The notes: a model not told the origin generated them from the sequence alone. A stretch of DNA of 64,000 nucleotides from an uncultured Actinomycetes bacterium (GCA_963704885.1 CAVPIB010000001.1:922262-986261); one strand, 5' to 3'; positions 341 through 22,281 are shown, counted from the stretch's first letter. Translations and numbers: made by a program.

Positions 341-1528
341 ATGAGCGAGCTCCGCTCAGCGGTCGATTCGCTGCGCGTCGAGGTGCTTCCGGAACTGCCG
401 GATGCACGGATCGAGGAGGACTTCAGCGAGCTCCAGCGGGTCTCCGAGCTCCTTGAGATAGAACGGCTTCGGCGCCTGGCCGAGCTCGATCGGCGCCGCC
501 TCTACGAACGCGACGGCCATCTGTCTGCGGCCTCGTGGCTCGCCACTGCTCACAGGGTGTCCTGGGGTGCGGCGCGGGATCAGATACGGGTGGCTCGAGC
601 GTTGGACGAGATGCCGCAGACGCGCCGCGCGCTCGAGGCCGGCGACGTATCGATGTCGGTGGTGCGGTTGCTCGTCGACGCCAGTGACGCCGATCCCGAG
701 GCCTTCTCGCGGTCGGAAGCTCAACTGGTGGACGCCGCCAGGATCCACTCCGTGCATGACCTGCAGAAGGTGGCGGCGTACTGGCGCCAAGGCGTCGAGC
801 GCGAACGTGCCAAGGACGGTGAGGACACTCTGCGCGAGCGTCGGAGGCTCCACGCATCGGTCTCGTTCGCTGGCATGGTTCGCGTGGACGGTGACCTGGA
901 TCCCGAGACAGGCGAGACGCTCCTCACGGCGCTTTCCGCTGTGCTCGACTCCGAGTCCCGCTCCCGCACCGACGACGACGTCAGAACGCCCGCCCAACTG
1001 CGGGCAGACGCCCTTGGCGAGATCTGCCGGCAATGGCTCGACCGCAGTGACAGGCCGAGCGTCGCGGGCGAGCGTCCGCACGTAACCGTGACGGTGGGTG
1101 CCGAGGCGCTTCGAGGCGACCTGGGCATGAGTAACGAGCTCGATTACGTCGGCCCCGTTGATCCGGAGACTGCGCGGCGGCTCGCGTGTGACGCCTCGAT
1201 CATGCGAGTGGTGCTCTCAGGGCGTTCCGAACCCCTCGATGTCGGGCGTAGGACCTCGGTCATCCCTGCTGCCATGCGCAGGGCAGTGATCGTGCGTGAT
1301 CGTCACTGCCGGTTCCCTGGGTGCGACCGTCCTCATACATGGTGCGATGCCCACCACGTCGTGCACTGGGCCGACGGAGGACCCACGGCGGTTCCCAACC
1401 TGCTCTTGTTATGCCGACGCCATCATCGGTTGGTGCACCAGGGCCGGTTCGGACTGACGCTTGAGGACGGACGGCCGTTGTTCAGACGACCCGATGCATC
1501 GCCGCTGGAGGATCGAGCACCGCCGTAG
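341..1528 (+). CDS. HNH endonuclease, DUF222/13E12-repeat family
   Basis: 395-aa ORF. C-terminal HNH motif ...RHCRFPGCDRPHTWCDAHHVVHWADGGPTAVPNLLLLCRRHHRLVHQGRFG. N-terminal DUF222-like region typical of multicopy actinobacterial HNH proteins. Confidence 0.85.
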   Translation: MSELRSAVDSLRVEVLPELPDARIEEDFSELQRVSELLEIERLRRLAELDRRRLYERDGHLSAASWLATAHRVSWGAARDQIRVARALDEMPQTRRALEAGDVSMSVVRLLVDASDADPEAFSRSEAQLVDAARIHSVHDLQKVAAYWRQGVERERAKDGEDTLRERRRLHASVSFAGMVRVDGDLDPETGETLLTALSAVLDSESRSRTDDDVRTPAQLRADALGEICRQWLDRSDRPSVAGERPHVTVTVGAEALRGDLGMSNELDYVGPVDPETARRLACDASIMRVVLSGRSEPLDVGRRTSVIPAAMRRAVIVRDRHCRFPGCDRPHTWCDAHHVVHWADGGPTAVPNLLLLCRRHHRLVHQGRFGLTLEDGRPLFRRPDASPLEDRAPP

Positions 1529-1644
1529 GAGCGAGTGTGAGGGCACGACTGCGCGCCGGCGATCAGTCTTCGGCGTGCAGGCGGTGCAGCTCCTGAACCA
1601 GGAGCTGCTCCTCGGACTCGCCCCAGTTCTCGCCCTGTGCGGCC

Positions 1645-4600
1645 TCACCTGCGGGCGGCTCGGCCACGACGATCTGCAGCGTGCCTCCGGAGGGGGCCTC
1701 TTGACCGGAGCCCGCCTCTTCGCCGTCGGCCGGAGGCGCAACAGGCGCCTCGCCACCTGGGCCGCCGTCGGGCAGGAAGACACGGAACGCCGATCCGCCG
1801 CCGTCGCGGCTCTCGATCCGGGTCCAGCCGCCCTTGCATCTCCACGAACCGTTCCACGACGGGACTGAGCGATCCGTCAGACGAGGGCTCGGGGTCTTCG
1901 ACCGAGATCAGAGCGCCTCCATCGAGGTGAGCCAGGCGAACGGTGATGCCCTTGCCCGGGGGCGTGCGGTCGCCGCTCGCCCGCAGCAGGCCCGCCAAGA
2001 CCTGCTCCGCGCGCAGCGCGTCCACGGCCACGATCAGCGACTCGCTATCGATACGGACGTCGTGGTCGGTGCCGACGCCGGACTCCTCCACGACACGCTT
2101 GACCAACGCCTCCAGGTCGGTGCGCTTGATCGTCAGATCGACGACGCCGTGCGCCAACGCGTCGGCGTCGGCCAGGTCGGCCACCGTATGGCCCAGTCGG
2201 CGTGCCGCAGCGGTCAGCTGCTTGATCAACTGTGCCTGCTCCTTGGAGTCCTTCTTGAACTTCATGATCTGCGTGAGGCCCAGGATGTGGGAGAGCGTCT
2301 TGTTCGCGTCGAGCGACAGCTCCTTGGTGAACGGTGAGGCAGCGCGGCGATCCTCGAGAGGCTCGCCGGCTTCGGCATCAGCTCCGGCAGCGGCCGCCGG
2401 TTCCGACGAGGTCTGCAGGTCGTGCAGCGCCTTCTCCATCTGGAGGTGTCGCAGCTCGGCCTCGACCTCTTCCAGTCGCACGATCGTCTCCGCGAACTGC
2501 CGCTCAGCGGAGTGCGCGCGCTCTTCGACCTCGATGAGCTTCTCGGTCTGGCTGGCCAGACGCTCCTGGCTCGCTCGCAGCACCTGCTCCGTGTCCGGGT
2601 CCGGCAGGGTCTGAGCGGCAGCGGCGGCCAGCTCGGCGGCGTGTCGGGCCTCCGACTCGGCCACCGTGCGGGACAACTCATCACGTTCGACGGTGATGCG
2701 CCCCAGGTCCCCGGTCGCTTGGGCGGCCTCCTCGCGCGCGGTTCGGAGTTCTTGCTCGACGCGGTCGGCCCGCTCGGTCAGCTCCACGCCGCGACCGAGC
2801 TCTGTTTGGATCTCCGCGTTGGCAGCAGCCAGCTCCAGGCGGATCTCCTCGCGTTCGCGTGCCGCGAGCTCCTGCTCGCGCTCCGCCTGTTCCCGCAGAC
2901 GGCTCGCGTCCGCCAGCTCTCGCTGGAGGGTTTCGATCTCGGTCCGCGAACGCATCAGCTCTTCGTTCGCCTTCGCGACCTGTTCGTTCCGCGACGAACC
3001 GTGTTGGGTGGCGGCTGCGATCTCGTCGCGCGAGGCCTGCAGGTCCGCGAGCGCCTTCTCGAGTTGCGATCGCGTCTCGCGCAGCTCGACGTTCGCGCTG
3101 TCGGAGGCCGCCGTCACCTCGGCGATCCGGCGAGTCAGCTCTTCATCGCGCTGGCTCAACCGCAGCTCGAGCGAGGATGCCTGTTGCGCCATCTCCTCCT
3201 GAAGCGTGGCCTCGCGCTCGGCCAGACGATGCTGGAGCTCGGCCTCGCGCTCGGCCGCCTCGGCCGTGAGCGTCGCTGCACTTTGTGCTGCCTCCGCCGT
3301 CAGCGCGGCTTCGCGATTCGCGGCTTCCTTGGCGAGCGCTTCTTCGCGCTCGGCCAGCTGGCGCTTCGCCTGCGTTTCCATCTCCACGATCTGCGTCTGG
3401 AACTCCTCGCGGGTCCGACGCACCTGTTCCTCTAGATCGGCCTCGCGCTCCACCAGGTCCGCGCGGTGCGACGCCTTCACGCTGTCGAGCTCCGCACGGG
3501 TCGCCCGGAGCTCCTCGCCCAAGACAGTCGCCTTCTGTTCCTCGGCGCGGAGCACGCGCATCTCGTTGCGCACGTCCTCCAGCTCGGTGTTGGCTCGTGC
3601 CAGCTCTGCCTGTGCCGATTCCAAGGACTCCCGCGTGTGCAGCGCTTCGACGTGAGCGGCGTCCAGATCCTCGTGCATCTCCTGCGCGCGCGCGGCCTGG
3701 GACTTGAGCGTGTCGAGCTCCCGGCGGGTCACGGAGAGCTCGGTGTGAGCCCCCTCGAGCTCGGCCCGCAGGCCGATCGCCTCTTGTTCGACCTGGCGGG
3801 CCCGGTGGTCGAGCGCCGGATCCGGCCTGTTCTTGGCCTGCTCGGCGATGTGGCGAGCGAGCTTGTCACGCTCGGTCCCCATGGCCTTCAGCTGGCCCTC
3901 CAGAAGCCGGACGTGACCTTCGGCCTTCAGGAGGCGTCCCTCCAGCTCGGGATCGAGCGCGCCGGGCTGCGGCCGCTCGTGCACCGACTTCTGCGTGACA
4001 TGCAACTGCTCCAGGGTCTTGCGGTACTGCTCCTGGATCACGGAAAGGCGTTGCTCGGCCGTCTCGGCCCGTTCCTCCGCCTTGCGTCGCGCGTCGCCCT
4101 CTTCGCGCAGGCCGGGGGACGGCAGCTCGATCGGACGCTGCACCGGAGGCATGGCCGCAGCCGCCGCGGCGGCTCGGGCGCTCGAGGGGACGAAGTTGGC
4201 CATAGCCACCGCCGAGGCGGAGAGGCGCATCACCTTGTACAGGAAGACGAACGCGACGACGGCACTGATAGCCATGAAGATGGCGGCGAACTGCCAGGGC
4301 CGGCCGGCCGCGGCGATGGGGCCGTCGGGTCGCGCGAGTTGGACGGCGGCCGCGATGGGCGCGTCCGACCGAAGATGCAGTGGCACGAGCACGGAGAAGG
4401 AGCCGTCGCGCTGGTCCCAGGACACGGTGCCGCGCGTTGTGGCGTCGGTGACGGCACTTCGAGCTTCATCTGGCCGTTGTCCGATGAGTGCCCGGTCCGT
4501 GGCGTAGACGATGGTGCCGTCCGTCGACCAGATGGCGACATCGTCGTAGGGCGTGGGGTCCAACACGACCGGCGTGATCTTGACCGTGATCTGGTCGGCC

Positions 4601-4818
4601 TCCGTGGAGCTCGCCGTGGAGTTCACGTCGGACGGCGACAGTACGAGTGGCAGGGAGTTCTCGACGATGGAGCGCGCCTGGTCAACCGCGTTCGTCTTCG
4701 CCTGGTTGATGGCATTAACGCTCAGCAGGATCGAGGCGATCGCGCCCACGGCTAGGAGCGCTGCCAATACAAGCAGCATCGTCCGAGCGATGCGATAAAC
4801 GCTCCTCGTGCCGGCCAT
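1645..4818 (-). CDS. Membrane-anchored coiled-coil protein with degenerate histidine-kinase-like C-terminal module
   Basis: 1057-aa ORF. N-terminal TM helix (MLLVLAALLAVGAIASILL), a roughly 150-aa extracytoplasmic segment, then a second TM (FAAIFMAISAVVAFVFLY). This is followed by about 650 aa of E/R/A/L/Q-rich heptad-like coiled coil. Next comes a DHp-like segment (ELSLDANKTLSHILGLTQIM) with Leu where the phospho-acceptor His is expected. An HATPase-like N-box (VLAGLLRAS) has both conserved Asn replaced and no G2 box. The Arg-rich last roughly 60 aa may be GC-driven read-through. Confidence 0.6.
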   Translation of the reverse strand: MAGTRSVYRIARTMLLVLAALLAVGAIASILLSVNAINQAKTNAVDQARSIVENSLPLVLSPSDVNSTASSTEADQITVKITPVVLDPTPYDDVAIWSTDGTIVYATDRALIGQRPDEARSAVTDATTRGTVSWDQRDGSFSVLVPLHLRSDAPIAAAVQLARPDGPIAAAGRPWQFAAIFMAISAVVAFVFLYKVMRLSASAVAMANFVPSSARAAAAAAAMPPVQRPIELPSPGLREEGDARRKAEERAETAEQRLSVIQEQYRKTLEQLHVTQKSVHERPQPGALDPELEGRLLKAEGHVRLLEGQLKAMGTERDKLARHIAEQAKNRPDPALDHRARQVEQEAIGLRAELEGAHTELSVTRRELDTLKSQAARAQEMHEDLDAAHVEALHTRESLESAQAELARANTELEDVRNEMRVLRAEEQKATVLGEELRATRAELDSVKASHRADLVEREADLEEQVRRTREEFQTQIVEMETQAKRQLAEREEALAKEAANREAALTAEAAQSAATLTAEAAEREAELQHRLAEREATLQEEMAQQASSLELRLSQRDEELTRRIAEVTAASDSANVELRETRSQLEKALADLQASRDEIAAATQHGSSRNEQVAKANEELMRSRTEIETLQRELADASRLREQAEREQELAAREREEIRLELAAANAEIQTELGRGVELTERADRVEQELRTAREEAAQATGDLGRITVERDELSRTVAESEARHAAELAAAAAQTLPDPDTEQVLRASQERLASQTEKLIEVEERAHSAERQFAETIVRLEEVEAELRHLQMEKALHDLQTSSEPAAAAGADAEAGEPLEDRRAASPFTKELSLDANKTLSHILGLTQIMKFKKDSKEQAQLIKQLTAAARRLGHTVADLADADALAHGVVDLTIKRTDLEALVKRVVEESGVGTDHDVRIDSESLIVAVDALRAEQVLAGLLRASGDRTPPGKGITVRLAHLDGGALISVEDPEPSSDGSLSPVVERFVEMQGRLDPDREPRRRRIGVPCLPARRRPRWRGACCASGRRRRGGLRSRGPLRRHAADRRGRAARR

Positions 4819-4985
4819 CGTTCCCCTTGCGACGTATGGACCCAGCTCAGGTATCGGCTCGCTTAGGGGGGAGCCGTAGTCGGTCAGAGGTGGGATATGG
4901 TCGGAGCCAGGTAGGTCCTAGGGTGTACCCCGCCCAGGGCTCGGCGGGCGCCGAAGGTCGCGGAAGGCCTCGGACGTCGCCGGGG

Positions 4986-7523
4986 CTACGCCGCCGGGCC
5001 GGCTCCCGAGCGGACGATCGTGTCGCCGGTGACCTCGTGCTTGTCCAAGACGATCAGGTCTTCGATCGCCTCGCGCATCTCCGCCACGTGACTCACCAGC
5101 ACGACCAAGCGCCGATCGTCGGCGGAGACCAGGCGGCCGATGCCCTCCATGGCGCGGTCCAGATGATCGGGATCGAGGCTGCCGAACCCCTCATCCAGGA
5201 AGAAGGAATCTAGGCGTCCGCCGCCGCGCGCGACCATCTCCGCCAGCGCGAGCGCGAGTGCGAGGGAGGCCAGGAATGTCTCGCCACCCGAAAGGCTGTC
5301 GGCCTTCCGCTTGGTGCCGGCGGCGTTCAGGTCCAAGATCTCGAACCGGTCGTCGTCGGTGAACCTGTATGCGCTGTCGGTCAGCTGCTCGAAGTGTTCG
5401 CTTCCCAGCTCCGCCAGCTCCGAGCGCTCCTCCTCTAAGAGGAATCCCAGGAAGCGGGAGGGCTGCAGGTCGTCGGCCAGGCGCTTCGCGACCCCTCTGC
5501 GCGACTCGGTCTCCAAGACCCTTCGCTCCAGGTCGCTCGCCGCCGCGATCCGCTCTTCCAGCTCGGTCACCAGCGCAGCCGCCGTGCCGTGCGCCACCCC
5601 CGCGTCGGCCAGCGCCCGTCGGAAGTCGTCTGTGGGAGCCAGGCCGAGCGACTCGAGCAGCGCGCCGCGGGCCGCGATGCCCTCCTGCACCCGGACCGCG
5701 GCTTCGTCCCGCTCCTCTGACGATCGCTCGTGCCGGGCGACGATCGCCTCACGCACGTCGGCGAACGCGGTCTCGATCGTGGCCGGCTCGGCAGGTACGT
5801 CGCGATCCTCGTCGAGCCGGCCCCAGATGCCGGACAGTCGGTTCGCGAGCTTGGCGATCATCGCGCCGGCATCCTCGGCCCGCCGAACCGACTCCTCGTG
5901 GGCCGAACGCGCGCGCTCGACCGCGGTCCGCGCCTGGTCCACCGCGAGCTCCGCGGCGGCGAGCTCCGCCTGCCGGGCTTCGAAGAGCGAGCGGACGTCT
6001 CCCTCCTCGCCCAGCCACTCGACCAGCTGGCTCTTGGTGGCGTCGAGCGCGGAGTCGGCCGCCGTCGTGGCCGCGGTGGCGCGCTCGAGGACGGCCTCCG
6101 CCCTGGCGATGCCGGTGCTCGCCTCGCCGACGGCTGTTCGCGCCGACGCGTCGTCGGCTGCGCACCGCTCCTTCTCGATTCGCGCGCGCGCCTCGTCCCG
6201 CTCGGCCTTGGCCAGGGCCTTCTCGGCGGCCGCGACCTTCGGGGCGGCCCCGGCCTTTGGGATCGTGTGCACGTCCTGTCTGCAGACGGGACAGGGCTCA
6301 CCGGCCTCGAGCGTCCCGCGGAGTTCGTGGGCCATCTCGGCATGCTTCGCGTCCATGAGGGAAACGCGCGCGGTCTCGACGACCTGGAGCACGGCGGTAA
6401 GCGCGCGATCGGCGGCGGCGAGAGCGTCGGTCGCCTCCACCGCAGAGGTCTCTCGCTCCTCGGCCAGGGACCGCTGGGTCGCGAGCTCCACGTCGGCGCG
6501 ATCGGCCTCGGCGCGCGCGGAACGCAGTTCGTCGATCTGGCGTTCGTGCGCTTGCACCAGGTGTTCGAACGAGCGGAACTGCTCGCGGTCTCCATGCCGA
6601 GAGGCCACGTCCGCCAGCTCGGCCTCCCGTTCCTTGCGGAGCTGCTCGACCTGTTCACGCGCGGCCTTCGCGTCCGCGACGCGCGCTTCAGCGTCACGCG
6701 CGGCAGCGATCGCGATCTCCACGTCGGGTGCGGAGGGCAGTGCCGCCACGATCTCCTCAAGAGCAGCGATCCGCGCTGTCGCGGCCTCGGCGTCGCCCGC
6801 CGCCGCGTCCCGCTCCTTCTCCAGGCGCTCGATCTCGGGTCCGGCCTTGTCCAGGGCCGCCAACCGAGCCTGCGAGGCCCCGGCTGTCGCCCTCGCCTGA
6901 TCCAGCCTGCCCCGGGCCTCGGAGACACGCTCGCGTTCCTTCTCGAAAGAGGCCAGCTCCATCTCCACGCGGTCCAGCCGGGACTTCGCCACGCGCAGGG
7001 CGTCGTCGAGCCGTTCGAACCCGAACACGCCCTTCAGAACAGCGTCGCGCTGGGCGGGCGTCGCCTTCAGGAACTCCGCGAAGCGATTCTGCGCCAACAG
7101 CACCGAACGGCAGAACGTCTTGAAGTCCATCCCCAGGAGCTGCTCGATACGCGCGTTCATATCGCGTTCGAGGGTCACGGTCTCCACGATGTCCGCGTCC
7201 GGCTCGTCGGCGGCCAGCAGCTCGAGCTGGTGACCCGACGCACCCTTTCGGCGGAGCGAGCGGACCGCTCGCCACACCTGTCCGTTCACCTGGAACCGCA
7301 GCTCCACGTGCGACTGGTCCGCGAGCTGGTGGATCAGCGTCTTGGTGGCGCCCTCCACCTGTGGCGTCTTGCCGTACAGCGCGAACGAGATCGCGTCGAG
7401 GATCGAGGACTTGCCCGAGCCGATCGGGCCGACGATCCCCACCAGTCGCCGATCGCGCCAGTCGAACGTGGCACGGCCGCGGTAGGAACGGAAGCCCTCA
7501 ACGGTCAGCTCAAGCGGTCGCAT
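4986..7523 (-). CDS. sbcC: SbcC/Rad50-family double-strand-break repair ATPase
   Basis: 845 aa. N-terminal Walker A (GPIGSGKSSILDAISFALYG), a long central coiled coil with a CxxC zinc hook (GEPCPVCRQDV), and a C-terminal signature plus Walker B (SLSGGETFLASLALALALAE...FFLDEGFGSLD). It overlaps the sbcD stop by 14 nt, consistent with an operon. Confidence 0.85.
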   Translation of the reverse strand: MRPLELTVEGFRSYRGRATFDWRDRRLVGIVGPIGSGKSSILDAISFALYGKTPQVEGATKTLIHQLADQSHVELRFQVNGQVWRAVRSLRRKGASGHQLELLAADEPDADIVETVTLERDMNARIEQLLGMDFKTFCRSVLLAQNRFAEFLKATPAQRDAVLKGVFGFERLDDALRVAKSRLDRVEMELASFEKERERVSEARGRLDQARATAGASQARLAALDKAGPEIERLEKERDAAAGDAEAATARIAALEEIVAALPSAPDVEIAIAAARDAEARVADAKAAREQVEQLRKEREAELADVASRHGDREQFRSFEHLVQAHERQIDELRSARAEADRADVELATQRSLAEERETSAVEATDALAAADRALTAVLQVVETARVSLMDAKHAEMAHELRGTLEAGEPCPVCRQDVHTIPKAGAAPKVAAAEKALAKAERDEARARIEKERCAADDASARTAVGEASTGIARAEAVLERATAATTAADSALDATKSQLVEWLGEEGDVRSLFEARQAELAAAELAVDQARTAVERARSAHEESVRRAEDAGAMIAKLANRLSGIWGRLDEDRDVPAEPATIETAFADVREAIVARHERSSEERDEAAVRVQEGIAARGALLESLGLAPTDDFRRALADAGVAHGTAAALVTELEERIAAASDLERRVLETESRRGVAKRLADDLQPSRFLGFLLEEERSELAELGSEHFEQLTDSAYRFTDDDRFEILDLNAAGTKRKADSLSGGETFLASLALALALAEMVARGGGRLDSFFLDEGFGSLDPDHLDRAMEGIGRLVSADDRRLVVLVSHVAEMREAIEDLIVLDKHEVTGDTIVRSGAGPAA

Positions 7524-8676
7524 CGGCCTCCTCCAGCACGTCGCGAAAGAGTGCGAGCAGTTCGTCCGGCGCTTCTTCTTCGTGCTCGCGACGGAAGTAC
7601 TCGGCGTAGAGGTCCTCCCACGAGCGGTGGCCCTTCGCCAGCCGAGCGCGCTGGGCGCCGGCGGGACGCTGGGCCCTCACGTTCACCAGGAACCCGAACG
7701 CCTGGTGAGCGCGCTCGGAGAGCGACACGTCGGTGCCGCTGGCCTTCACGGTCAGATCCAGGAACGCGTCGGCCAGCTCCTCGGCCCGCGCCTCGATCGC
7801 GTCCCACGTGTCGGTCACGCGGACGAGACGCCGGCCGCCGGTGATCGGAACCGTCTCGGCCACGGCCAGCCGGCCGGGCTCGGCATCTACGATCACGACC
7901 CGCTTGTGCTCGCCCGCCTCGCCGAAGTCGAGTGCCAGCAGCGAGCCGGCGTACTCGGCCGGGACGGGCGTGCCGGGGACCGTCTGCGGCGCGTGGATAT
8001 GGCCCATCGCCACGTACTGCGGGCCGGGCGGTATCGCCTGCGCCGTGGCGGCGTAGGCATCGCCCATGTGGAGTTCCCGCTCGCCGCGCGCACCGTCGCG
8101 CCCCACGCGCACACCGTTAACCAGGAAGTGGGCCACCAGGATCGGGACCAGGTCGGCGCCGGCGAGTTCCACGAGCGCCTGGTTGTAACGGCCGGTGATC
8201 GCCGCCACCCGGTCCGCGTAGCCGCGGTACCACTCGCCGGCGTCCTTCATGAAGTCCACGACCTTCCCCTCCCGCAGGAACGGGAAACAGGCCACTACCG
8301 CGGGTAGGCCGCCGAGCTGGTCCGGGCCGATCACCCCCCCCTGATCCGGGCGCTTGATGCCGCCCACCAGGTGGACGCCCTGAGGACCGAGCAGCGGCGC
8401 GAGCGCCTCGAAGAGATCGGGGGAGTCGTGGTTGCCGGCCACCGCGATCACCGGTCGGCGCTCGGCGAGGCGCCGGAGCGTCTGCAGGCCGAGAGCAAGC
8501 GCGTCCATCTGCGGGATCGGCCGGTCCCAGACGTCGCCCGAGACGATCACGAGGTCGACGGCGCGTTCGTCGGCGATCCGTTCGACCTCCGCCAGGACGT
8601 CGCGGAACTCGTCCATGCGGTCGTGGCGGCCGAGCCGTTTGCCGATGTGCCAGTCCGATGTATGGAGGATCCGCAT
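7510..8676 (-). CDS. sbcD: SbcD/Mre11-family nuclease
   Basis: 388 aa. N-terminal calcineurin-like phosphoesterase motifs (MRILHTSDWHIGK ... VIVSGDVWDR ... AVAGNHD ... GHIHAPQ) typical of SbcD. Confidence 0.9.
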   Translation of the reverse strand: MRILHTSDWHIGKRLGRHDRMDEFRDVLAEVERIADERAVDLVIVSGDVWDRPIPQMDALALGLQTLRRLAERRPVIAVAGNHDSPDLFEALAPLLGPQGVHLVGGIKRPDQGGVIGPDQLGGLPAVVACFPFLREGKVVDFMKDAGEWYRGYADRVAAITGRYNQALVELAGADLVPILVAHFLVNGVRVGRDGARGERELHMGDAYAATAQAIPPGPQYVAMGHIHAPQTVPGTPVPAEYAGSLLALDFGEAGEHKRVVIVDAEPGRLAVAETVPITGGRRLVRVTDTWDAIEARAEELADAFLDLTVKASGTDVSLSERAHQAFGFLVNVRAQRPAGAQRARLAKGHRSWEDLYAEYFRREHEEEAPDELLALFRDVLEEADATA

Positions 8677-8699: not shown

Positions 8700-10436
8700 C
8701 TAGAGGCCCGCGAACGGGTCGCCGTCGGCGTCGGTCGCCACTTCCTCCTTCCTTGTGGCCCAGGGCGGGAAGGGGAACGTCACGACGAGCGGCACCGGGA
8801 TGGCCGGCTGCGACACGACCATGGTGCCGGGCTTGAGCAGGCGCGCCCTCGCGCGTGTAGACGGCAGCATCCAGCCGTATTCAGCGCGCTCGGCCTCGGC
8901 GGCGTCCAGGCGTCCGCTCACGCGGATCGCGGCATTCTCCAGGACCTCTTGCGCGACCCGCGAGGCCGTCTGCTGCGCGCCGACGAGCAGCACGCCCAGC
9001 GACCGTCCGCGTTGCGCGATGTCGACGAGCATGTCCTTCAAGGGCCCGGTGCCTTCGCGGGGCGCGTACTTGTTGAGCTCATCGAGCACGAGCACCGAAA
9101 GGGGCAGCCGCTGTCCCGACTCCTCCTTCTCGCGGAACGTCTCGTTCAGGAGCGCGCCGACCACGAACCGCTGCGCCTGGTCGTGCAGCGACTGGATCGC
9201 CACGACCGTGACGCTCGCCTTCGAACGATCGATGCGGCGGCTCTCCCCGGCCTTCACCAGCTGGCCCATGCGCGCGGCGCCGGCGTGGAGTCGCCGCATG
9301 AACGCCGAGACGGTTCCGCCCATCACCCGGCCGCTCCATGCCCAGTCCGGCTCGGAGCCGTCAAGCGGCTCCAGGAACTCGCCGAGCGCGTCGACCAGCG
9401 AGGGGATGTCCGTCACCGTTCGCTCACCAGGTTGCGCCTTGACCTGCTGGCCGCGCCAGTTGCCGTCAGGCGCGTCGCGCGGATCGCGGAGCACGACCGC
9501 GCCCGGCATCCCTGCCACATCGACCGCGAAGCGTTTCAGCTGGGCCTGCACGCGTTCGCGGATGAACGGGATCTGGTTGCGCTGGTCGTTCGCATCGGTC
9601 AGTAGGAACTGCAGCAGCTCCTCGTCCACGAACTCGCGCGGCGTCCAGCTGAAGACGTCCACGCCCTCTTGGCGACCGCCCGTGTCGGGGACCACGACGT
9701 CGCCCGAGCGCGGGCGGGGCGGCGCCCAGAACCTGACCGAGGGGAACGGCCCGGGCTCCACGCCGAGCTTGGCCCAGCCGGCCGCGGCGTCCTCGTCGAA
9801 GAACCGGTTCGGCTTGTCCATCCAAAGGAGGTCTTCGCCCTTCACGTTGAAGACGAGCACGCGCAGGTTCGCGGCGCCCTCGCCCAGCAAGGCCGGGTTC
9901 CCGGTGAGCATCCTCAGGAAGAACAACGCGAACGACGTCTTGGTCGCCACGCCGCTGATCCCGCTGATCGACATGTGCCCGCCCTTACGCCCATCGAAGA
10001 AGTCCAGGTCCACGCTCACCGGCTCGCCGTCACGCCCGATGCCGATCGGCAGCGGCCGGCCCATCTCGTCCAGGTAGAGCGCCTTCGCGCGCTCGTCGCC
10101 GGTCGCGCGCTGCACGACCTCGCCTGGATCGGGCGAGACCCACACCTCCGGGTCCACACGTGTGACTGCGACGCGCGCGGAGCGGACCTTGGCCGCCGGC
10201 ATGATCCCGAGCTCGGCGACGCGGTGGGTGTCGGACTCGTACGAGGCTCCTTCGTAGACCGCCTCGGCCTCGGTGACCACGCCGTAGGTCCGGATCTCGC
10301 CCGCCTTGGGCACCTGCGTTCGGACGACCACCAGATCGTCCAGCTGGAGGAAGTCGTCGTCGTCCAGGACCACGCGGAACTCGGCCGTGGAGGCGTGCTC
10401 GGAGCCCAGGACGCGGCCGACGCCGTCGCCGGTCAC
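8700..10436 (-). CDS. herA: HerA-like (DUF87/COG0433) ATPase
   Basis: 578 aa. The N-terminal roughly 110 aa resemble a HerA HAS-barrel. The central P-loop-like region is GISGVATKTSFALFF, a non-canonical Walker A. Walker B is VLVLDELNKYAP, followed by an arginine-finger-like QRGRSLGVLLVGAQQ. The stop is 24 nt upstream of the sbcD start. Confidence 0.7.
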   Translation of the reverse strand: MTGDGVGRVLGSEHASTAEFRVVLDDDDFLQLDDLVVVRTQVPKAGEIRTYGVVTEAEAVYEGASYESDTHRVAELGIMPAAKVRSARVAVTRVDPEVWVSPDPGEVVQRATGDERAKALYLDEMGRPLPIGIGRDGEPVSVDLDFFDGRKGGHMSISGISGVATKTSFALFFLRMLTGNPALLGEGAANLRVLVFNVKGEDLLWMDKPNRFFDEDAAAGWAKLGVEPGPFPSVRFWAPPRPRSGDVVVPDTGGRQEGVDVFSWTPREFVDEELLQFLLTDANDQRNQIPFIRERVQAQLKRFAVDVAGMPGAVVLRDPRDAPDGNWRGQQVKAQPGERTVTDIPSLVDALGEFLEPLDGSEPDWAWSGRVMGGTVSAFMRRLHAGAARMGQLVKAGESRRIDRSKASVTVVAIQSLHDQAQRFVVGALLNETFREKEESGQRLPLSVLVLDELNKYAPREGTGPLKDMLVDIAQRGRSLGVLLVGAQQTASRVAQEVLENAAIRVSGRLDAAEAERAEYGWMLPSTRARARLLKPGTMVVSQPAIPVPLVVTFPFPPWATRKEEVATDADGDPFAGL

Positions 10437-10658
10437 GAGGTCTCTGCGGCCGACGCTGTCATGACGCGTATCGTAGCCGCGCCTTCCGATGGCGGGGGAG
10501 TTTCGAGCCGGCGGGAGCTTGGTCGCCTCAGCCGCCGAGGCTCGCGCATCTTCGCTCGTCAGACAACCATGGGTCGGATGGCCCCACTTGATAGGGCCGG
10601 CGAACCCTCACGGACGCCTTCGGGTATCCCTACGTTGGGTTCCGGGAGGTGTCTAGAG

Positions 10659-10862
10659 ATGAAAGCAAGCGTTGGAGATCGGATAGTCGTTCGCGGGCAC
10701 CACGTTGGCGAATCCGAGCGGGACGGCGAGATCCTGGAGGTGCGCGGCCCTGATGGCGGCCCTCCCTACCTCGTCAAGTGGTCGGCGGACGGACATGTCG
10801 GGTTCGTGTTCCCAGGTCCAGACGTGACGATCGAGCACTTCGAGAGCCACCTGTCCCGGTGA
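10659..10862 (+). CDS. DUF1918 domain small protein
   Basis: 67 aa (MKASVGDRIVVRGHHVGESERDGEILEVRGPDGGPPYLVKWSADGHVGFVFPGPDV...). An RBS (gggaggtg) lies 8 nt upstream of the ATG. The sequence matches the conserved actinobacterial DUF1918 pattern. Confidence 0.7.
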   Translation: MKASVGDRIVVRGHHVGESERDGEILEVRGPDGGPPYLVKWSADGHVGFVFPGPDVTIEHFESHLSR

Positions 10863-10879
10863 TCGCGGTTACGCCGTGG

Positions 10880-11809
10880 CTATGAGGCTTCCGGCTGGCT
10901 GACGGCTTGCCGCAGGGCCCGGTAGACGAGGCCGGGGTCGCCCATGCGATGTCGGAGTTGGCGTTCGAGTGCACCGATGGGCACCAGGTTCTGCGGCGCG
11001 CGGGGATCCATGTGGGCCTCCGAGGCGACGACGGGCAGCACCGCGGCCGTCCGGTCGGCGATCACGCGCACCTCCTCCTTGGGGAGCTGGCCCGACGCCT
11101 CGCAGCGGACGATGCCGGTCCATGAATGGCCGCCTTGGAGCATGGCCAGACGCACGTACCAGGAGTAGCGCCGGTATCCCGCGATCGTGAACAGCGGCGT
11201 GCGCTGCCCGGGAGCGAGTTCGGCGATCACGGCGTTCTGCTCGGGTGGCAGGTAGGTGACGCGATGGCTCTTGATGTAGCCGACGACCGGCTTGGCCTCC
11301 AGCTCGTTCAGCGGCCCGTCGGCGATCACGAACGCATCGGCCGCGAGCACTGAGGCCGCCTCGCCTTCGGCCCGCCTCATCCGGGTGTGGAGCTCCTTCA
11401 CCAGGTGGCCGGGGTCATCCGATGCCGTCGTGGTCGTCAGGTAAGGCGGCTCTAGGTCGACCACAGGCAGCTGCTCGGGTCGACCGCCCGCCAGAACGGC
11501 CCACCGCTCGACACGAACGTTCACGACTTCGGACCAGCGCTCCTCGCGGTCCCAGAGCGCCGCGCCCACGGCGAACGTTCCGCAGATCCCCGGGATCGGG
11601 CCGGCGATCGGATCGTCCAGGAGCAGGCGCGCATCGACGCGCCTCACACCATCAACGAACGCGATCCGGTTCGTGCCGTCGTCGGCGCCCTCGAGCGGCT
11701 CCCAATCCGTTACCTCGACCGTCGCGTCGATCGTCCCCTCGGCCGGGGCGAGCTGCTCGTCGAGCTCGAGGGGCGCGCCGTACTCGGGAGCCCATCCCTC
11801 GACGAACAT
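10880..11809 (-). CDS. Hypothetical protein, candidate NurA-like nuclease
   Basis: 309 aa with no recognizable signal peptide. It has an RIAFVDGV motif near residue 50 that resembles NurA motif I ([IV]DGS). It sits just upstream, on the same strand, of herA-sbcD-sbcC. The assignment rests on context and is weak. Confidence 0.35.
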   Translation of the reverse strand: MFVEGWAPEYGAPLELDEQLAPAEGTIDATVEVTDWEPLEGADDGTNRIAFVDGVRRVDARLLLDDPIAGPIPGICGTFAVGAALWDREERWSEVVNVRVERWAVLAGGRPEQLPVVDLEPPYLTTTTASDDPGHLVKELHTRMRRAEGEAASVLAADAFVIADGPLNELEAKPVVGYIKSHRVTYLPPEQNAVIAELAPGQRTPLFTIAGYRRYSWYVRLAMLQGGHSWTGIVRCEASGQLPKEEVRVIADRTAAVLPVVASEAHMDPRAPQNLVPIGALERQLRHRMGDPGLVYRALRQAVSQPEAS

Positions 11810-11816
11810 CCGCGCC

Positions 11817-12410
11817 TCACCAGCCGAGGACGTCTTCGTCTCCCTCGAGCTGCACGCCTAGACCGTCGGCGAGTCGGTTCACGTAGGCGAAGTAGCAGGT
11901 GATCATGTTCGCATCCAGGATCTCGCGGTCCGTCAGACCCGCCCCTCGCATCGGAGCCAGGTCGGACTCGACCATGTTCCACGGCTCACGCGTGAGCTTG
12001 TCCGCGTAGTCGCAGATCGCCCGCTCGCGCGGTGTCAGCGGTGCCGTCCGATGATCTGCCTCGAGCGCCGCCGCGAATCCCGGCCGGCGCCGATCCGTCA
12101 TGCGGGCCAGACCGGCCGCGTGATGGCGTAGTCAGTAGTGGCACGCGTTCACCGCAGAGACGACGACGCCGATCATCTCCCGTTCGGGCCGGCTGAGATC
12201 GCCCTTGCCGTGCATCAGCGTCCGATAGAGGCGGGAGTGATCGCGCATCGTCTCCGGATGGAGACTGTGGATGGCCAGGATGTGATCCACGGTGCCGGTC
12301 TTGGCCGTTCGCATCTCGTCGTACAGCTCGGCGAGCTCCCCTTCGGCTTCCGCCTCGGGGATCACTTCGATCCAGGCCGGCCGATGCTCGGGCGAGGGGT
12401 CCTCGTTCAT
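11817..12410 (-). CDS. AhpD-like / carboxymuconolactone-decarboxylase-family peroxidase-related protein with in-frame TGA (candidate selenocysteine, CxxU)
   Basis: Track ORFs 12132..12527 (ending ...AVNACHY*) and 11817..12101 (MTDRRRPGF...) are in the same frame. They are separated only by a TGA and 10 sense codons (LRHHAAGLAR). The TGA sits where the second Cys of the AhpD CxxCxxxH motif is expected, giving CHY-U-LRHH. The likely real start is the ATG at about 12410 (MNEDPSPEHRPAWIEV...), which gives about 197 aa, the size of TIGR01926-type proteins. Confidence 0.6.
12094..12131 (-). promoter_or_regulatory. SECIS-like stem-loop downstream of the in-frame UGA
   Basis: The mRNA reads UGA-CUACGCCAUCAC-GCGGCC-GGUCU-GGCC(C)GC-AUGACGG. 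A 6-bp stem with a one-nucleotide bulge starts 12 nt after the UGA. The apical loop is GGUCU, as in the E. coli fdhF SECIS loop. An imperfect lower stem extends the structure (CAUCAC/AUGACGG). Confidence 0.5.
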
Positions 12411-12554
12411 CGGGCGCCATCCTCGCACACCCTTCTTCAGACGGGCTCTTCGATCGACGAGACCACCTTCCAACCCGACGACCCTTCGAAGACGAGGACT
12501 GAGATCCTGGTTGCGCTCGGACAGCAATGGGCATCCCCTTCCGCGAATACGGCT

Positions 12555-13178
12555 TCACGGATCTCCAGACCGATCGGGTCGGTGGACAGGTCGATCGTCG
12601 TGTCGCAGGTCTTCTTCTTGAAGACGGTCGCGTTCGCCGCAAGATCGATCACGCGCCACCTGCCGCACGCCCCGGAACCTCCCGGTGTCCTCGAACGTCA
12701 GTGCATCAGGCGATCCATCCCCGGTCGCGTCGCCGATGATCGCACGGATCTGGATGACCCCGCGCTGCGGCGGGTCGCGCAGTCCGAACAGGGGACGCCA
12801 CGGCGATGACTCTCCGGGGAAGCGTCGCCATACGACGAGGCCGTGCTCCCGTCGGAACGGGTCGGTGCCAGGGTCCACCCAGGCGACCAAGATCGACGAC
12901 CCTGCCGACGTCTCCGCGAACCAGACGTCCGTCACCGACGTACCCCGTGGCACCAACGCCTCGGGCGGGACCTCGGAGGCCTCGACGTCTCGGTCGTAGG
13001 ACGAGGGCGTGCCCGCCGTCACGCCGACCGGTTCAACCGCCGGGCTCGGCGACGAAGAGGAGGTTGGTGTCAACGGTGTCGGCGTCGGGGAGACGAGCAC
13101 CGATGGGGACGGCTCGGCCTCCCCGCTGCACGCGGCGGCCAGCACGACGAGCGCGGTCGCCCATATCACCCTCCGCAT
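12555..13178 (-). CDS. Putative lipoprotein (hypothetical)
   Basis: 207 aa. Signal peptide with lipobox (VVLAAACSG), then Pro/Ser/Thr-rich linker, then a globular part with no recognizable family. Confidence 0.5.
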   Translation of the reverse strand: MRRVIWATALVVLAAACSGEAEPSPSVLVSPTPTPLTPTSSSSPSPAVEPVGVTAGTPSSYDRDVEASEVPPEALVPRGTSVTDVWFAETSAGSSILVAWVDPGTDPFRREHGLVVWRRFPGESSPWRPLFGLRDPPQRGVIQIRAIIGDATGDGSPDALTFEDTGRFRGVRQVARDRSCGERDRLQEEDLRHDDRPVHRPDRSGDP

Positions 13179-17679: not shown

Positions 17680-18345
17680 CTACTCGACGCTGCCGGGGGT
17701 GGTGGTGTGGCGGGCCAGGTAGGCGGCGGCCTCCGCTCGACGCGCGACCTCCAGCTTGGACAGGATGCTGGAGACGTAGTTCTTGACGGTCTTCTCGGCC
17801 AGGTTCAGCTCATCGCCGATCTCGCGATTCGTGCGTCCGCCGGCCACCAACGTGAGGATCCTCTCTTCTTGCGGTGACAGGCGGGCCAGCTTCTCGTCCT
17901 TCATCAGGTGCTTCCCTTTGCGGAGACGATCGAGCACCGCGCTCGTGACCGCCGGGTCCAGCAGGCTCTCGCCGGCGCCCACGGCACGGATCGCGCGAAG
18001 GAGATCGTCGGATCGCACCTGCTTCAAGACGTAACCCGATGCGCCGGCCATGATCGAGGCGAACAACGCCTCGTCATCGGCGAACGACGTCAGCATGAGC
18101 ACCTGCGTCTTGGGATGTTTCGCGCGGATCTCACGCGTCGCCTCGATGCCGCTCCCGTCGATCAGCCGGACGTCCATCACGACGACGTCGGGGCGGGTGC
18201 GGTCGGCCTCGTCGATCGCCTCTTGCACCGAGCCTGCCTCGGCGGTCACGACCACGTCGTCCTGCGGCTGGAGCATGGCCCGGATGCCATCGCGCACGAT
18301 CTGGTGGTCATCGACGAGCATGACGCGGAGCGGCGGCTGGGCCAT
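17680..18345 (-). CDS. NarL/LuxR-family response regulator, DosR/DevR-like
   Basis: 221 aa. REC domain (LVDDHQIVRDGI...DVVVMDVRL) plus LuxR HTH. It shares AEAGSVQEA and LAEKTVKNYVSSILSKL with M. tuberculosis DosR (GEAGSVAEA, LAEKTVKNYVSRLLAKL). Confidence 0.85.
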   Translation of the reverse strand: MAQPPLRVMLVDDHQIVRDGIRAMLQPQDDVVVTAEAGSVQEAIDEADRTRPDVVVMDVRLIDGSGIEATREIRAKHPKTQVLMLTSFADDEALFASIMAGASGYVLKQVRSDDLLRAIRAVGAGESLLDPAVTSAVLDRLRKGKHLMKDEKLARLSPQEERILTLVAGGRTNREIGDELNLAEKTVKNYVSSILSKLEVARRAEAAAYLARHTTTPGSVE

Positions 18346-18354
18346 CCACGGATG

Positions 18355-18843
18355 CTACTCGTCTGAAACGGAGATGCTCCGATCGGCGGACGCCTCCGCC
18401 ATCAGCGCCTCGCCGACCCCATCCAGGAAGTCCTTCAGGGTCGCCTCGGCCACGCGGAACATGATCGCTCGGTCTATCACCCGGCCGAGCGAGCCCAACG
18501 GCGGCACGTAGCGGGCGCTCATGGCCAGCTGGGTCCGGTGGGGGCCGAGCGGCGCCACCTCGAGATCTGCCTCCAGGGACGGGAACAAGCCCGCCGCGCC
18601 GGTCGCCGTCCACTTCAAGGGTACGACGGTCTTGGCGGTCATCCGCACGGGGGATCCGAACTCGATCGCCACCTGGCGGGCCACTCGAACGTCGTCGCCG
18701 AACCCCACCTGGGCCAGGAGCGCGTCTCCTCTTCGATTGGCGGCGCTGGCCAGACCCGGAACCCAGTCCTGCGGCGCCGACGTCAGGGCGCGTTCGACCT
18801 GGGCAGGCTCCATAGGCAGTTCCACGAAGTACCTGGCGAACAT
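18355..18843 (-). CDS. Hypothetical protein (possibly SRPBCC-like)
   Basis: 162 aa, no signal peptide. The ORF is 9 nt downstream of the response regulator on the same strand. Confidence 0.4.
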   Translation of the reverse strand: MFARYFVELPMEPAQVERALTSAPQDWVPGLASAANRRGDALLAQVGFGDDVRVARQVAIEFGSPVRMTAKTVVPLKWTATGAAGLFPSLEADLEVAPLGPHRTQLAMSARYVPPLGSLGRVIDRAIMFRVAEATLKDFLDGVGEALMAEASADRSISVSDE

Positions 18844-18990
18844 AGTTGAAGTGTCTCCATCTAGGCCTAGGGTCCAGAGGGGCGGGGGGCCCGAAGGACA
18901 AGGGACCTACGGCACCCTGGGCAGGATCCGGCGCCCCACACACTCGGGCCCATGTGCTCGTCATGTTCTTTCATCGGAAGGGGTAGAGGC

Positions 18991-20385
18991 ATGATGCAAG
19001 GTCATATCCGCAAGGGGGCGGTGATCGCTGCATTGAGCGCCGCAGCGCTGGTTGCAACGGCTTGCACCGGCGGCGACGGCGCGAGCGGCGGCGCCAGCGA
19101 TCAGGCCGCCGTGGCTCCTGCCACGGTCGAGGTCATGCTTGCAGACTTCACGATCACCCCGGTCGCGATCTCGGTGCCGGCGGACCAGCCGGTTCAGTTC
19201 GCGATCATGAACCACGGTCTGGCCCCGCACACGTTCGCGGTGGTGGTGGGTGATCAGACCTACGAATCCGATCTGATCGATCCGAGCGGGCAGGGGACGT
19301 TGGATGTGCCTGCGCTCGAAACTGGCGCCTACGAGGCGTACTGCACGGTGGCAGGGCACAAGGACCTCGGCATGGTGGGCACCGTCAACGCCGGGGTGGA
19401 GGCGAACGGGGACGGGACCGACGCGACCGATGGCGGGACCATGTCGTCGGCCGGGATGACCGCTCAAGAGATGGCCGACATGCACGAGGTCGGCGTCCAG
19501 GCGTTCCTGGCTGGCAAAGAGACCTCCACACGGGGCAACCAACCTCTCGAACCGGTGATGGATGGCACCACGAAGGTGTTCGACATGACGGCGCAGAGCA
19601 TCCAGTGGGAAGTATCGAAGGGCGAGTTCGTTGACGCCATGGCGTTCAACGGACAGGTCCCCGGACCGGAGATCTCGGTCGGCTACGGTGACCACATCCG
19701 GATCGTGCTGCAGAACCAGCTGGATCAACCAACCACGTTGCACTTCCACGGGATGACCGTGCCGAACGCCCAGGACGGCGTCCCTTACGTCACGCAGGAC
19801 GCCATCATGCCGGGGGAGTCATGGACGTATGAGTTCACCGTCAAGGATCCGCCCGGCATGTACGTCTATCACTCGCACTTCAACTCCACCGAGCAGGTTG
19901 GGGGCGGGCTCTACGGCGCGCTCATGGTGCAGCCCGAAGGGGGGGCGTGGCCCTACCGCGGCGCGACGATCGACGATAGGACCGGCGCCATGACGTTCGG
20001 TGCTCCCGTCGCCGTCGACCTCGAGGAGACACTCTTCGTGGGTGACGGACCGCTCGGGTACGTCTTGAACGGCAAATCGTTCCCGGCCACGACGCCCATC
20101 GTCGCGAAGCGGGGCGACTGGGTCCTGATCCACATGGCCAACGACGGCGCCATGCTGCACCCGATGCACCTGCACGGCTATCACTTCCAGGTCGTCGCGC
20201 AAGACGGGTTCCCACTGGAGAATCCTTACATGGCGGACACCCTGGTGATCGCCCCGGGCCAGCGGTTCGACGCGCTGGTTCATGCCGTCTACCCGGGTGC
20301 CTGGGCGTTCCACTGCCACATCCTGCCCCACGTCGAGGGTCCGGATGGGATGTTCGGGATGGTGACGGCATTGGTCGTGCAGTGA
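18991..20385 (+). CDS. Lipoprotein multicopper oxidase: N-terminal cupredoxin domain fused to a two-domain MCO
   Basis: Start ATG at 18991 with RBS ggaaggggtagagg. Lipobox LVATAC. An N-terminal blue-copper site (H...YEAYCTVAGHKDLGM), then four His-pair motifs: LHFHGMT, YVYHSHF, HPMHLHGYHF and WAFHCHILPHVEGPDGMFGM. The portion after the cupredoxin domain is about 330 aa, consistent with a SLAC-like two-domain MCO. Confidence 0.8.
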   Translation: MMQGHIRKGAVIAALSAAALVATACTGGDGASGGASDQAAVAPATVEVMLADFTITPVAISVPADQPVQFAIMNHGLAPHTFAVVVGDQTYESDLIDPSGQGTLDVPALETGAYEAYCTVAGHKDLGMVGTVNAGVEANGDGTDATDGGTMSSAGMTAQEMADMHEVGVQAFLAGKETSTRGNQPLEPVMDGTTKVFDMTAQSIQWEVSKGEFVDAMAFNGQVPGPEISVGYGDHIRIVLQNQLDQPTTLHFHGMTVPNAQDGVPYVTQDAIMPGESWTYEFTVKDPPGMYVYHSHFNSTEQVGGGLYGALMVQPEGGAWPYRGATIDDRTGAMTFGAPVAVDLEETLFVGDGPLGYVLNGKSFPATTPIVAKRGDWVLIHMANDGAMLHPMHLHGYHFQVVAQDGFPLENPYMADTLVIAPGQRFDALVHAVYPGAWAFHCHILPHVEGPDGMFGMVTALVVQ

Positions 20386-20387
20386 TC

Positions 20388-20406
20388 TAGTCTGAGACAG
20401 ACTAGT
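20388..20406. terminator. Hairpin between convergent MCO and GAF-kinase genes
   Basis: ctagtctg-aga-cagactag is a perfect 8-bp inverted repeat immediately after the MCO stop. Confidence 0.45.
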
Positions 20407-20413
20407 ACAGCGC

Positions 20414-22204: not shown

Positions 22205-22281
22205 GAACGCCTCGCATCGTGCGGCCCGGCTCGCCGGTGGCGGCCGGACCGCACGACCGGCGTGAGAGGGAGGTGCGGGAG

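Follow-up and report, generated by a model that had tools for sequence, protein, structure and literature searches.

What kind of protein is encoded immediately downstream of sbcC in an uncultured actinomycete, and what could a membrane-anchored coiled coil with a dead kinase at its end do there? This study analyzed a 64,000-nucleotide stretch of DNA from an uncultured Actinomycetes bacterium (GCA_963704885.1, CAVPIB010000001.1:922262-986261), hereafter called the window, and focused on the open reading frame (ORF) at positions 1645..4818 of the minus strand. A first-pass annotation had described its product as an SMC-like protein ending in a dead histidine kinase (HK) module. Our results revealed that the protein represents a new architecture among bacterial histidine pseudokinases and is not an SMC relative. 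It is probably a catalytically dead descendant of a transmembrane (TM) sensor HK of the WalK/PhoR type, which would serve as a dimeric scaffold or receptor anchored in the envelope and expressed from its own promoter.

The ORF comprises 1057 codons, begins with ATG, and has a G+C content at third codon positions (GC3) of 0.84, a coding-type value typical of the window's genes. The final approximately 62 residues of its translation (RLDPDREPRRRR...) form an Arg-rich, low-complexity tail (RLDPDREPRRRRIGVPCLPARRRPRW...) that looks like an off-frame reading of G+C-rich DNA. Three-frame translation revealed that the adjacent frame at the 3' end reads on as GGWTRIESRDGGGSAFRVFLPDGG...LLVQELHRLHAED and stops at 1563-1565, and dropping one base at approximately 1833-1836 yielded a protein of 1084 residues ending in ...EMQGGWTRIESRDGGGSAFRVFLP...LLVQELHRLHAED. 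At this insertion site (1833..1836), the coding strand of the window reads CAAGGGCGG, whereas nine relatives and contig L165 carry CAGGGCGG. L165 is 93.5% identical to the window across 8.5 kb and encodes P0265, a protein that has an intact C-terminus and clusters at 90% identity with P0001, the deposited protein of the window. When the 86%-identical homologue P0002 was compared with the window by tblastn, the alignment ran in frame -2 from 4818 to 1831 and then in frame -3 from 1862 to 1566. The ORF is a real gene, the 1057-residue version is the corrected gene with a shifted tail, and the C-terminus of P0001 (1057 aa) is mistranslated. As reconstructed, the gene extends over 1563..4818 of the minus strand (1084 codons and a stop, with one surplus base at approximately 1833-1836), and the residue numbers and minus-strand positions given below refer to this version. 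The alternative named earlier, that the ORF would resolve into smaller genes after correction, proved right about the frameshift and wrong about the splitting; the gene was lengthened and completed instead.

An assembly error in a short homopolymer is the most likely cause of the frameshift, because a conserved lipoprotein gene nearby is also frameshifted in the window (12681/12682, a site with G runs, 11 kb from the pseudokinase gene). A true pseudogene, killed by the frameshift in this genome, would account for the surplus base in the sequence as given. This explanation is nevertheless very unlikely: the frame after the insertion stays open for 90 codons and closes with a fully conserved motif identical to that of P0265, the surplus base is the only frame-breaking indel relative to L165 within 3.2 kb of coding sequence, the lipoprotein gene is broken in a similar manner, and many related metagenome-assembled genomes (MAGs) with megabase contigs are Nanopore-based products of the Microflora Danica project (PMC12313526). 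Programmed frameshifting was ruled out, the nine relatives and L165 being in frame at the site. Similarly garbled Arg/Pro-rich C-terminal stretches were observed in P0046 (an NCBI MAG protein of 1115 aa), P0160, P0161, and P0168, and frameshift-corrupted translations of this G+C-rich gene seem to be common in public MAG annotations.

The corrected C-terminus was recognized as an HK fold both by profile and by structure prediction. A profile of 24 family C-terminal modules (A1), searched against PDB, matched Thermotoga HK853 with E=3e-13 across both the dimerization and histidine phosphotransfer (DHp) domain and the catalytic and ATP-binding (CA) domain, and also matched the pseudokinases DivL (chain 4q20) and RetS. 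The AlphaFold model of the module, a monomer domain model, reached a predicted local distance difference test (pLDDT) value of 80, with 135 residues and much of the CA domain above 90. It comprises the DHp hairpin (helices at model residues 9-34 and 38-69), a compact alpha/beta domain (72-197), a disordered linker, and a terminal helix. Foldseek matched this model to HK853 at 1e-12 and retrieved HK853, DivL, WalK, RetS, and other HK cores at a probability of 1.00. According to these models, the module is a DHp hairpin followed by a CA domain of the Bergerat alpha/beta fold. The DHp-like two-helix hairpin covers residues 821-890 (2149..2358; hidden Markov model alignment to HK853 and AlphaFold), and the degenerate, lid-less HATPase_c (CA) domain covers residues 891-1017 (1767..2148; sub-threshold Pfam match, HK853 alignment, and model).

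The phospho-His, the N-box Asn, the G1 motif DxGxG, the F box, the G2 box, and the ATP lid of an active HK have all been lost, and the first description of a pseudokinase fused to a long coiled coil on a membrane anchor held. As that description had stated, Leu stands where the phospho-His is expected (Leu836, 2311-2313, aligned with H260 of HK853), and both Asn of the N-box are replaced (EQVLAGLLRAS, 1975-2007, within the CA domain; G943 and A947 aligned with N376 and N380 of HK853). The G1 remnant VEDPEPSSD keeps the Asp in D975-P-E-P-S and loses both Gly. The window protein has nothing that corresponds to HK853 residues 182-216, the stretch of approximately 35 residues that forms the ATP lid and includes the F and G2 boxes. 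The reported absence of a G2 box was correct insofar as the lid is deleted across the family, and was partly a frameshift artefact, since the C-terminal CA strands (GGW..E...GGSaFrVfLP) are present after frame correction. In the corrected protein, Pfam HATPase_c scored 19.8 bits against a cut-off of 26.4 and Pfam HisKA gave no match. Behind the CA domain lie an acidic linker (residues 1018-1062, 1632..1766), which is poorly conserved, predicted to be disordered (pLDDT <50), and contains a conserved L-x-I-V-V element, and a conserved C-terminal helix (W..sEEQLLVQELHRLhAED, residues 1063-1084, 1566..1631, in the window's frame -3). The helix was found in hosts of all three types of neighboring gene cassette (A, B, and C, described below).

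A word-indexed search identified full-length relatives of 980-1274 aa, with identities down to 36%, all from metagenomes or MAGs labelled Actinomycetota or Actinomycetes. None bears a characterized name; the source labels read only "hypothetical protein," "chromosome segregation ATPase," or "signal transduction histidine kinase," in agreement with the initial failure to match the protein to a characterized family. Scanning the GTDB species genomes revealed at least 97 species with a relative. An exhaustive HMMER search of 1.84 billion representatives yielded approximately 45 clusters (50% identity) with single-stretch matches above 190 bits. Below this family the score fell to approximately 160 bits and less, and many matches consisted of two stretches, as expected when an ATP lid interrupts the profile. 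The lower matches included single-stretch, distant TM-sensor-TM-coil proteins that lack the His, some of them with a partial lid.

The catalytic columns were examined in a 96-sequence alignment of the C-terminal module. The phospho-His column contained Leu in 56 sequences, His in 12, Val in 12, and Ser in 3, and 11 different residues occupied this position across 71 species. The N-box Asn column (A947) contained Ala in 36, Phe in 24, Ser in 16, and Thr in 10; G1 was a conserved EDPEPSSD, and the ATP lid was missing in all 96 modules. The acidic residue at His+1 was near-invariant (Asp in 95 of 96), and His+4 was Lys in 77 and Arg in 17; the resulting sequence D-A-K/R-K/R does not match the HisKA phosphatase motif E/DxxT/N as defined in PMC12963549. 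Several motifs were near-invariant (EDRRxxPFxKEL, KxKKDxKxQxQLIxQLT, RRLDH, DH[DE]V, and GGWxxVExRxGGSxFRVFLPDG). In a per-column profile of the protein, the pseudokinase module was the best conserved part, with 3.1-3.6 bits per column versus 0.8-2.5 in the middle of the rod; it was followed by the juxtamembrane coil at residues 236-280 and then by the rod segments 341-360, 421-480, and 741-800. With the module conserved better than any other region, the alignment indicates a functional pseudokinase rather than a decaying kinase: the HK fold is kept, the catalytic residues are lost, and the module is under purifying selection.

At the other end of the protein, two TM segments were identified by a hydropathy scan and AlphaFold, namely TM1 at residues 13-35 (4714..4782, within a model helix over residues 3-54) and TM2 at residues 175-197 (4228..4296). 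The N-terminus is basic (MAGTRSVYRIAR) and predicted to lie in the cytoplasm. The two TM segments and the extracytoplasmic location of the approximately 140 residues between them had been annotated correctly. This part is not a plain loop and is instead predicted to fold into a sensor domain of the PDC/Cache type (residues approximately 36-174, 4297..4713; AlphaFold and Foldseek). A monomer model of residues 1-215, computed from a 24-sequence alignment, had a pLDDT of 85 and comprised one long helix, a sheet of five strands flanked by helices, and the second TM helix; a long N-terminal helix followed by an antiparallel sheet and helices between two TM segments is the PDC/Cache arrangement. The best Foldseek match of the domain was the extracellular domain of WalK/YycG (8e-6), with CitA, KinD, DcuS, and DctB also matched, at a probability of 1.00. 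At the sequence level the Cache signal was sub-threshold (sCache_3_2, E=4e-4 in the homologue P0048).

Between TM2 and the kinase module lies a coiled-coil rod of approximately 570 residues (236-810, 2389..4113), delimited by heptad score, periodicity, and scarcity of Pro. It is composed of 18% Glu, 17% Ala, 12% Arg, and 11.5% Leu. A register-free sliding test of the heptad a/d positions gave z=7.6 relative to composition-matched shuffles, the local periodicity was 3.4-3.7 residues, and a global Fourier test for a single fixed heptad phase across the whole rod was not significant. The initial description of approximately 650 residues of continuous coiled coil was accurate as to a long coiled coil and inaccurate as to its length and continuity, given three Pro-containing breaks (approximately 281-290, 329-337, and 736-742). 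The longest stretch without Pro runs from 341 to 738 and would span approximately 60 nm as one continuous helix at approximately 0.15 nm per residue. The center of the rod (481-600) is variable in length and repeat-like.

The label "SMC-like" was not sustained. No ABC head or Walker motif is present, and the rod had no significant homologue in PDB. The TIGR02168 match of 21 bits lies far below the cut-off of 567 and is confined to the rod, and neither SMC_N, AAA_23, nor SbcC_Walker_B was matched at E values up to 1. Neither a CxxC hook nor a hinge domain can be seen in the protein sequence. The likeness to SMC, Rad50, and SbcC is limited to a long charged coiled coil; these proteins possess the ABC head, Walker A/B motifs, and signature that the window protein lacks, together with a hinge or zinc hook of which its sequence shows no sign, and the window protein is a membrane protein. 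The true SbcC encoded next door gave SMC_N and AAA_23 matches, whereas the pseudokinase gave neither.

Among known systems, kinases of the WalK/YycG, CitA, and DcuS type share the order TM, PDC, TM, helical linker, DHp, and CA; the sensor fold of the window protein resembles the WalK extracellular domain, and its kinase core resembles HK853. In contrast to these kinases, the catalytic motifs are gone, the short linker is replaced by a coiled coil of approximately 570 residues, and no cognate response regulator is encoded nearby. DivL of Caulobacter crescentus, chain 4q20 of which was among the best profile and fold matches of the module, likewise combines a DHp and CA fold without phospho-acceptor His with a membrane anchor and acts by protein contacts. 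In DivL, Tyr occupies the His position, PAS domains stand in place of an extracytoplasmic PDC domain, and a rod of approximately 570 residues is absent; unlike DivL, the window protein has no ATP lid and carries a conserved terminal helix, the two being compared by fold and profile and not as orthologues. The Caulobacter proteins TipN and PodJ are TM-anchored, have large cytoplasmic coiled coils, recruit signaling proteins, and contain no HK-derived module; their likeness to the window protein is functional only, and homology is not expected. An actinobacterial parallel is PsmA (SCO4009 family), a hybrid HK-like polarisome scaffold confined to Streptomycetaceae, in which the His position is variable, the lid is incompatible with ATP, and autokinase activity is absent (PMC12963549). 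By that description, PsmA shares with the window family the variable residue at the His position and non-conserved ATP motifs, whereas the window family lacks a receiver domain and possesses a PDC sensor, a pair of TM helices, and a giant rod.

We then turned to the region upstream of the gene. The spacer between sbcC and the pseudokinase gene was unusually conserved, and within a conserved block at 4852..4931 on the minus strand it contains a bipartite promoter-like motif (CCGACTACGG at 4874-4883 and CCGATA at 4852-4857). Anchored on the invariant CCGATA, the consensus over 76 loci was cgaCTGAAyc-N16-TGCCGATAA. CCGATA was located within 240 nt 5' of the start in 75 of the 76 loci, compared with a background of 0.026 per 240 nt. 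The full bipartite pattern occurred 41 times in the 1.39 Mb of DNA fetched; 38 of these copies were upstream of a pseudokinase gene and spanned hosts of cassette types A, B, and C as well as the cassette-less locus L074. No such motif was found to precede the cassette. There was no indication of a structured RNA in the spacer (RNAalifold -11.8 kcal/mol without covariation; nothing in Rfam), and we read the conservation as acting at the DNA level, on a promoter or operator. A scan of 1300-5300 for sigma-70 promoters and terminators revealed nothing above chance. Promoters of extracytoplasmic function (ECF) sigma factors are marked by AAC in the -35 element, CG[AT] in the -10 element, and a spacer of 16-17 nt (PMC5758882), and from this resemblance the pseudokinase gene is predicted to have its own conserved ECF-like promoter.

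Two further observations concern this region. At many loci (among them L019, L026, L043, L058, and L064), although not in the window's clade, the sequence AACC(A)C-N4-6-GGAGACCAG follows 10-25 nt downstream of CCGATAA and falls in the would-be 5' leader of the pseudokinase transcript. Regulation of the pseudokinase gene by DNA damage was considered and rejected: no LexA box or PafBC-type motif was found upstream of it, PafBC-type matches being at chance level, and the only perfect LexA box of the window fronts an HNH gene. This box, a perfect palindromic LexA-type SOS box (TCGAACATATGTTCGA) at 316-331 and the only zero-mismatch match in 64 kb, lies 10 nt before the DUF222/HNH gene (341-1528, plus strand).

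The genes upstream of the pseudokinase gene form a cassette on the same strand. It comprises a nurA-like gene (10880..11809, 309 aa; weak Pfam NurA match, E=0.018, with its position 5' of herA kept in more than 50 loci), herA (8700..10436, 578 aa; PDB chain 7f6d_B, named HerA by the depositor, E=1.4e-118), sbcD (7510..8676, 388 aa; Pfam Metallophos), and, as its last gene, sbcC (4986..7523, 845 aa; Pfam AAA_23, SMC_N, and SbcC_Walker_B). The sbcC gene ends 167 nt upstream of the pseudokinase gene. The same-strand position right after sbcC and the convergent orientation relative to the DUF222-HNH gene were as originally annotated; the convergent gene is common only to the window and its closest relative, L165. 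On the far side of the cassette is a conserved lipoprotein gene of approximately 250 codons (12443..13031, minus strand; tblastn frames -3 then -1), whose homologues carry a lipobox, a Pro/Ser linker, and a Cys-rich C-terminal domain; the lipoprotein had no relative in Pfam or PDB. Spacers are unusually long in the window, with 443 nt between nurA and herA (10437-10879) and approximately 630 nt between the lipoprotein gene and nurA (11810-12442), the latter holding a 94-aa ORF (11817-12101) with coding-like GC3. In most other loci (e.g., L002 and L004) these genes abut, and a long nurA-herA gap was also observed in some close relatives (e.g., L010 and L011).

Genomic context was surveyed in 81 distinct related loci, 6 of which were too short to judge, leaving 75 evaluable. 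Three cassette types were distinguished. The cassette is colinear with the pseudokinase gene in type A (58 of 81 loci); type B (3 of 81) has a 38-47%-identical cassette that is divergent from the pseudokinase gene; and type C (12 of 81), also divergent, contains a HerA with DUF87 and a NurA with PF09376 and was undetectable with type-A queries. A cassette adjoins the pseudokinase gene in 73 of the 75 evaluable loci; L074 and L013 have no adjacent cassette, and in L074 the slot is empty and the lipoprotein gene lies directly beside the pseudokinase gene. HerA identity was 76-95% within type A, 73-95% within type C, and 44-47% between A and B, whereas the divergence of the pseudokinase module was about equal between hosts of unlike and like cassette types. 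Because HerA splits by type and the pseudokinase module does not, the cassettes are not merely fast-evolving orthologues. The three types interleave on a neighbor-joining tree of the module, and a clade with the N-terminal signature MIASLKGYG contains both type A and type C hosts.

The edges of the slot are constant across cassette types, with the lipoprotein gene on one side and the pseudokinase gene on the other. Sharing the orientation of the pseudokinase gene, the lipoprotein gene bordered the slot in 42 distinct related loci, which covered every cassette type (44 rows, including two duplicate contigs), and the outer flanks recurrently contained genes for aconitase, a 4HBT thioesterase, thiolase or acyl-CoA dehydrogenase, and FtsH. 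On the sequence comparison of more than 70 loci (e.g., L017, L026, L058, and L074), the pattern resembles an exchange of cassettes at one fixed position. A further profile (A4), made from the next-closest proteins without lid or without His, retrieved 80 metagenome loci, and no nurA, herA, sbcD, or sbcC was found near these relatives in the 30 loci with enough flank; because none of these 30 carries cassette genes, the link to the cassette is limited to this pseudokinase family proper. The C-terminal tail of the pseudokinase did not co-vary with cassette type. In PADLOC, a set of anti-phage defence models, the pseudokinase was unmatched and SbcC and HerA gave only generic ATPase-level matches, and a literature search found no described partner of herA-nurA-sbcCD of this kind.

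We consider it probable that the protein descends from a WalK/PhoR-type sensor HK, is catalytically dead, and functions as an envelope-anchored scaffold or receptor. It would form a parallel homodimer through the DHp domain and the rod, as do other HK-derived proteins, and, judging from the lost motifs, would neither bind ATP nor autophosphorylate. The conserved DHp/CA surface and the C-terminal helix could then bind partner proteins at a distance of tens of nanometres from the membrane, and the outside domain could read or bind an envelope component, possibly the neighboring conserved lipoprotein, with transcription driven from the gene's own ECF-sigma-like promoter. Several points weigh against this proposal. 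The AlphaFold runs were monomeric domain models only; the dimer and the rod geometry, like the scaffold or receptor role, are deductions, and any partner is a candidate. The ECF assignment is a motif resemblance, and the window's clade has CCGACTACGG at -35 instead of CTGAAC. The frameshift could be a genuine strain-specific mutation. Twelve of the 96 aligned modules keep the His, one of them (P0048) reaching Pfam HisKA with 29.9 bits against a cut-off of 26.9, and a few members with the N-box Asn intact attain the HATPase_c threshold (P0085 and P0082); some lineages may retain leftover phospho-chemistry. These His-bearing members, the Asp at His+1, and the profile matches to RetS and DivL are consistent with residual phosphotransfer, in which a His is phosphorylated in trans, the protein acts as a response-regulator phosphatase, or it forms a RetS-like heterodimer with an active kinase. 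We regard this as highly improbable, as the window protein and most of the family have Leu, Val, Ser, Thr, or Asn in place of the His, His+4 is Lys or Arg and not Thr or Asn, and the E/DxxT/N motif (PMC12963549) is missing. The conserved neighborhood also lacks a response regulator: no receiver-domain gene was found at three distant loci or beside the gene in the window, where the nearest (17680-18345) is 13 kb away and lies near its own GAF-HisKA_3 kinase.

The neighboring genes suggest two partners for such a scaffold, and both suggestions could hold at once. It is plausible that the protein is linked to DNA-end processing, and adjacency at 73 of 75 species-level loci, its persistence with three distant cassettes in colinear (A) or divergent (B and C) orientation, and the interleaving of these types on the pseudokinase tree are consistent with a dedicated accessory of NurA-HerA-SbcD-SbcC, that is, a membrane tether or regulator that places or gates the complex at the envelope through the head and the C-terminal helix. 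That the protein is such an accessory is possible but doubtful. Its adjacency is weakened as functional evidence because the whole region is syntenic in the lineage; the block of aconitase, lipoprotein, slot, pseudokinase, thiolase or acyl-CoA dehydrogenase, and FtsH genes may simply have been inherited together, and recombination in the conserved flanks can explain the cassette swapping. Further arguments against it are the separate promoter motif, the lack of LexA or PafBC-type motifs, the two loci that retain the gene without a cassette, the tail that does not follow cassette type, and the distant lid-less relatives with no cassette nearby. Its fullest form, in which the dead head on the long rod docks or gates the complex and the PDC domain, possibly with the lipoprotein, couples it to the state of the envelope, is rather unlikely; if true, envelope sensing would be physically connected to the processing of DNA double-strand breaks, and the retention of three unrelated cassette versions in one slot beside the pseudokinase gene would be explained.

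The other candidate partner is the lipoprotein at the slot edge. MtrB-LpqB and WalK-YycH/YycI provide analogues for an envelope-sensing pair of this composition, which here would be controlled by an envelope-stress ECF sigma factor, with the repair cassette as an unrelated insert. The co-orientation of the lipoprotein gene, its place at the slot edge in all cassette types and directly beside the pseudokinase gene in L074, and the structural match of the sensor domain to WalK all point in this direction, as do the ECF hallmarks of the promoter motif, AAC at -35 and CGA at -10 (PMC5758882). We nonetheless hold this pairing to be unlikely: it is built on synteny within a generally syntenic region and on an analogy with MtrB-LpqB and WalK-YycHI, the lipoprotein has no recognizable family or solved relative, and no sigma or anti-sigma gene was identified nearby.

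Two other features of the window were observed. A raiA RNA motif (Rfam RF03072) lies between called genes at 62095-62325 on the plus strand and scored 141.9 bits against a gathering score of 101.3. The region 17680-23000 encodes a NarL-type response regulator (17680-18345), a multicopper oxidase (18952-20385), a GAF-HisKA_3 kinase (20414-21556), an Hsp20 protein (21653-22204), and a CBS-BON protein (22219-22962); this grouping is reminiscent of a dormancy set of the DosR/DevS kind and has no relation to the pseudokinase.

To our knowledge, few bacterial histidine pseudokinases are known, namely DivL, PsmA, and in part RetS. Each of them showed how the two-component fold can be used without catalysis, in the manner of a scaffold. 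The family described here, spread over approximately a hundred species of uncultured soil Actinomycetota, adds an extreme architecture, in which a complete outside sensor and a rod of approximately 570 residues are combined with a kinase core that has neither lid nor His and is yet the best conserved part of the protein. Its locus is also unusual, in that a fixed slot between the lipoprotein and pseudokinase genes accommodates three distant versions of the nurA-herA-sbcD-sbcC cassette. Should this adjacency have a function, bacterial DNA-end processing would be coupled to the sensing of the envelope; should it have none, the slot would be a clean example of cassette exchange at a conserved position.

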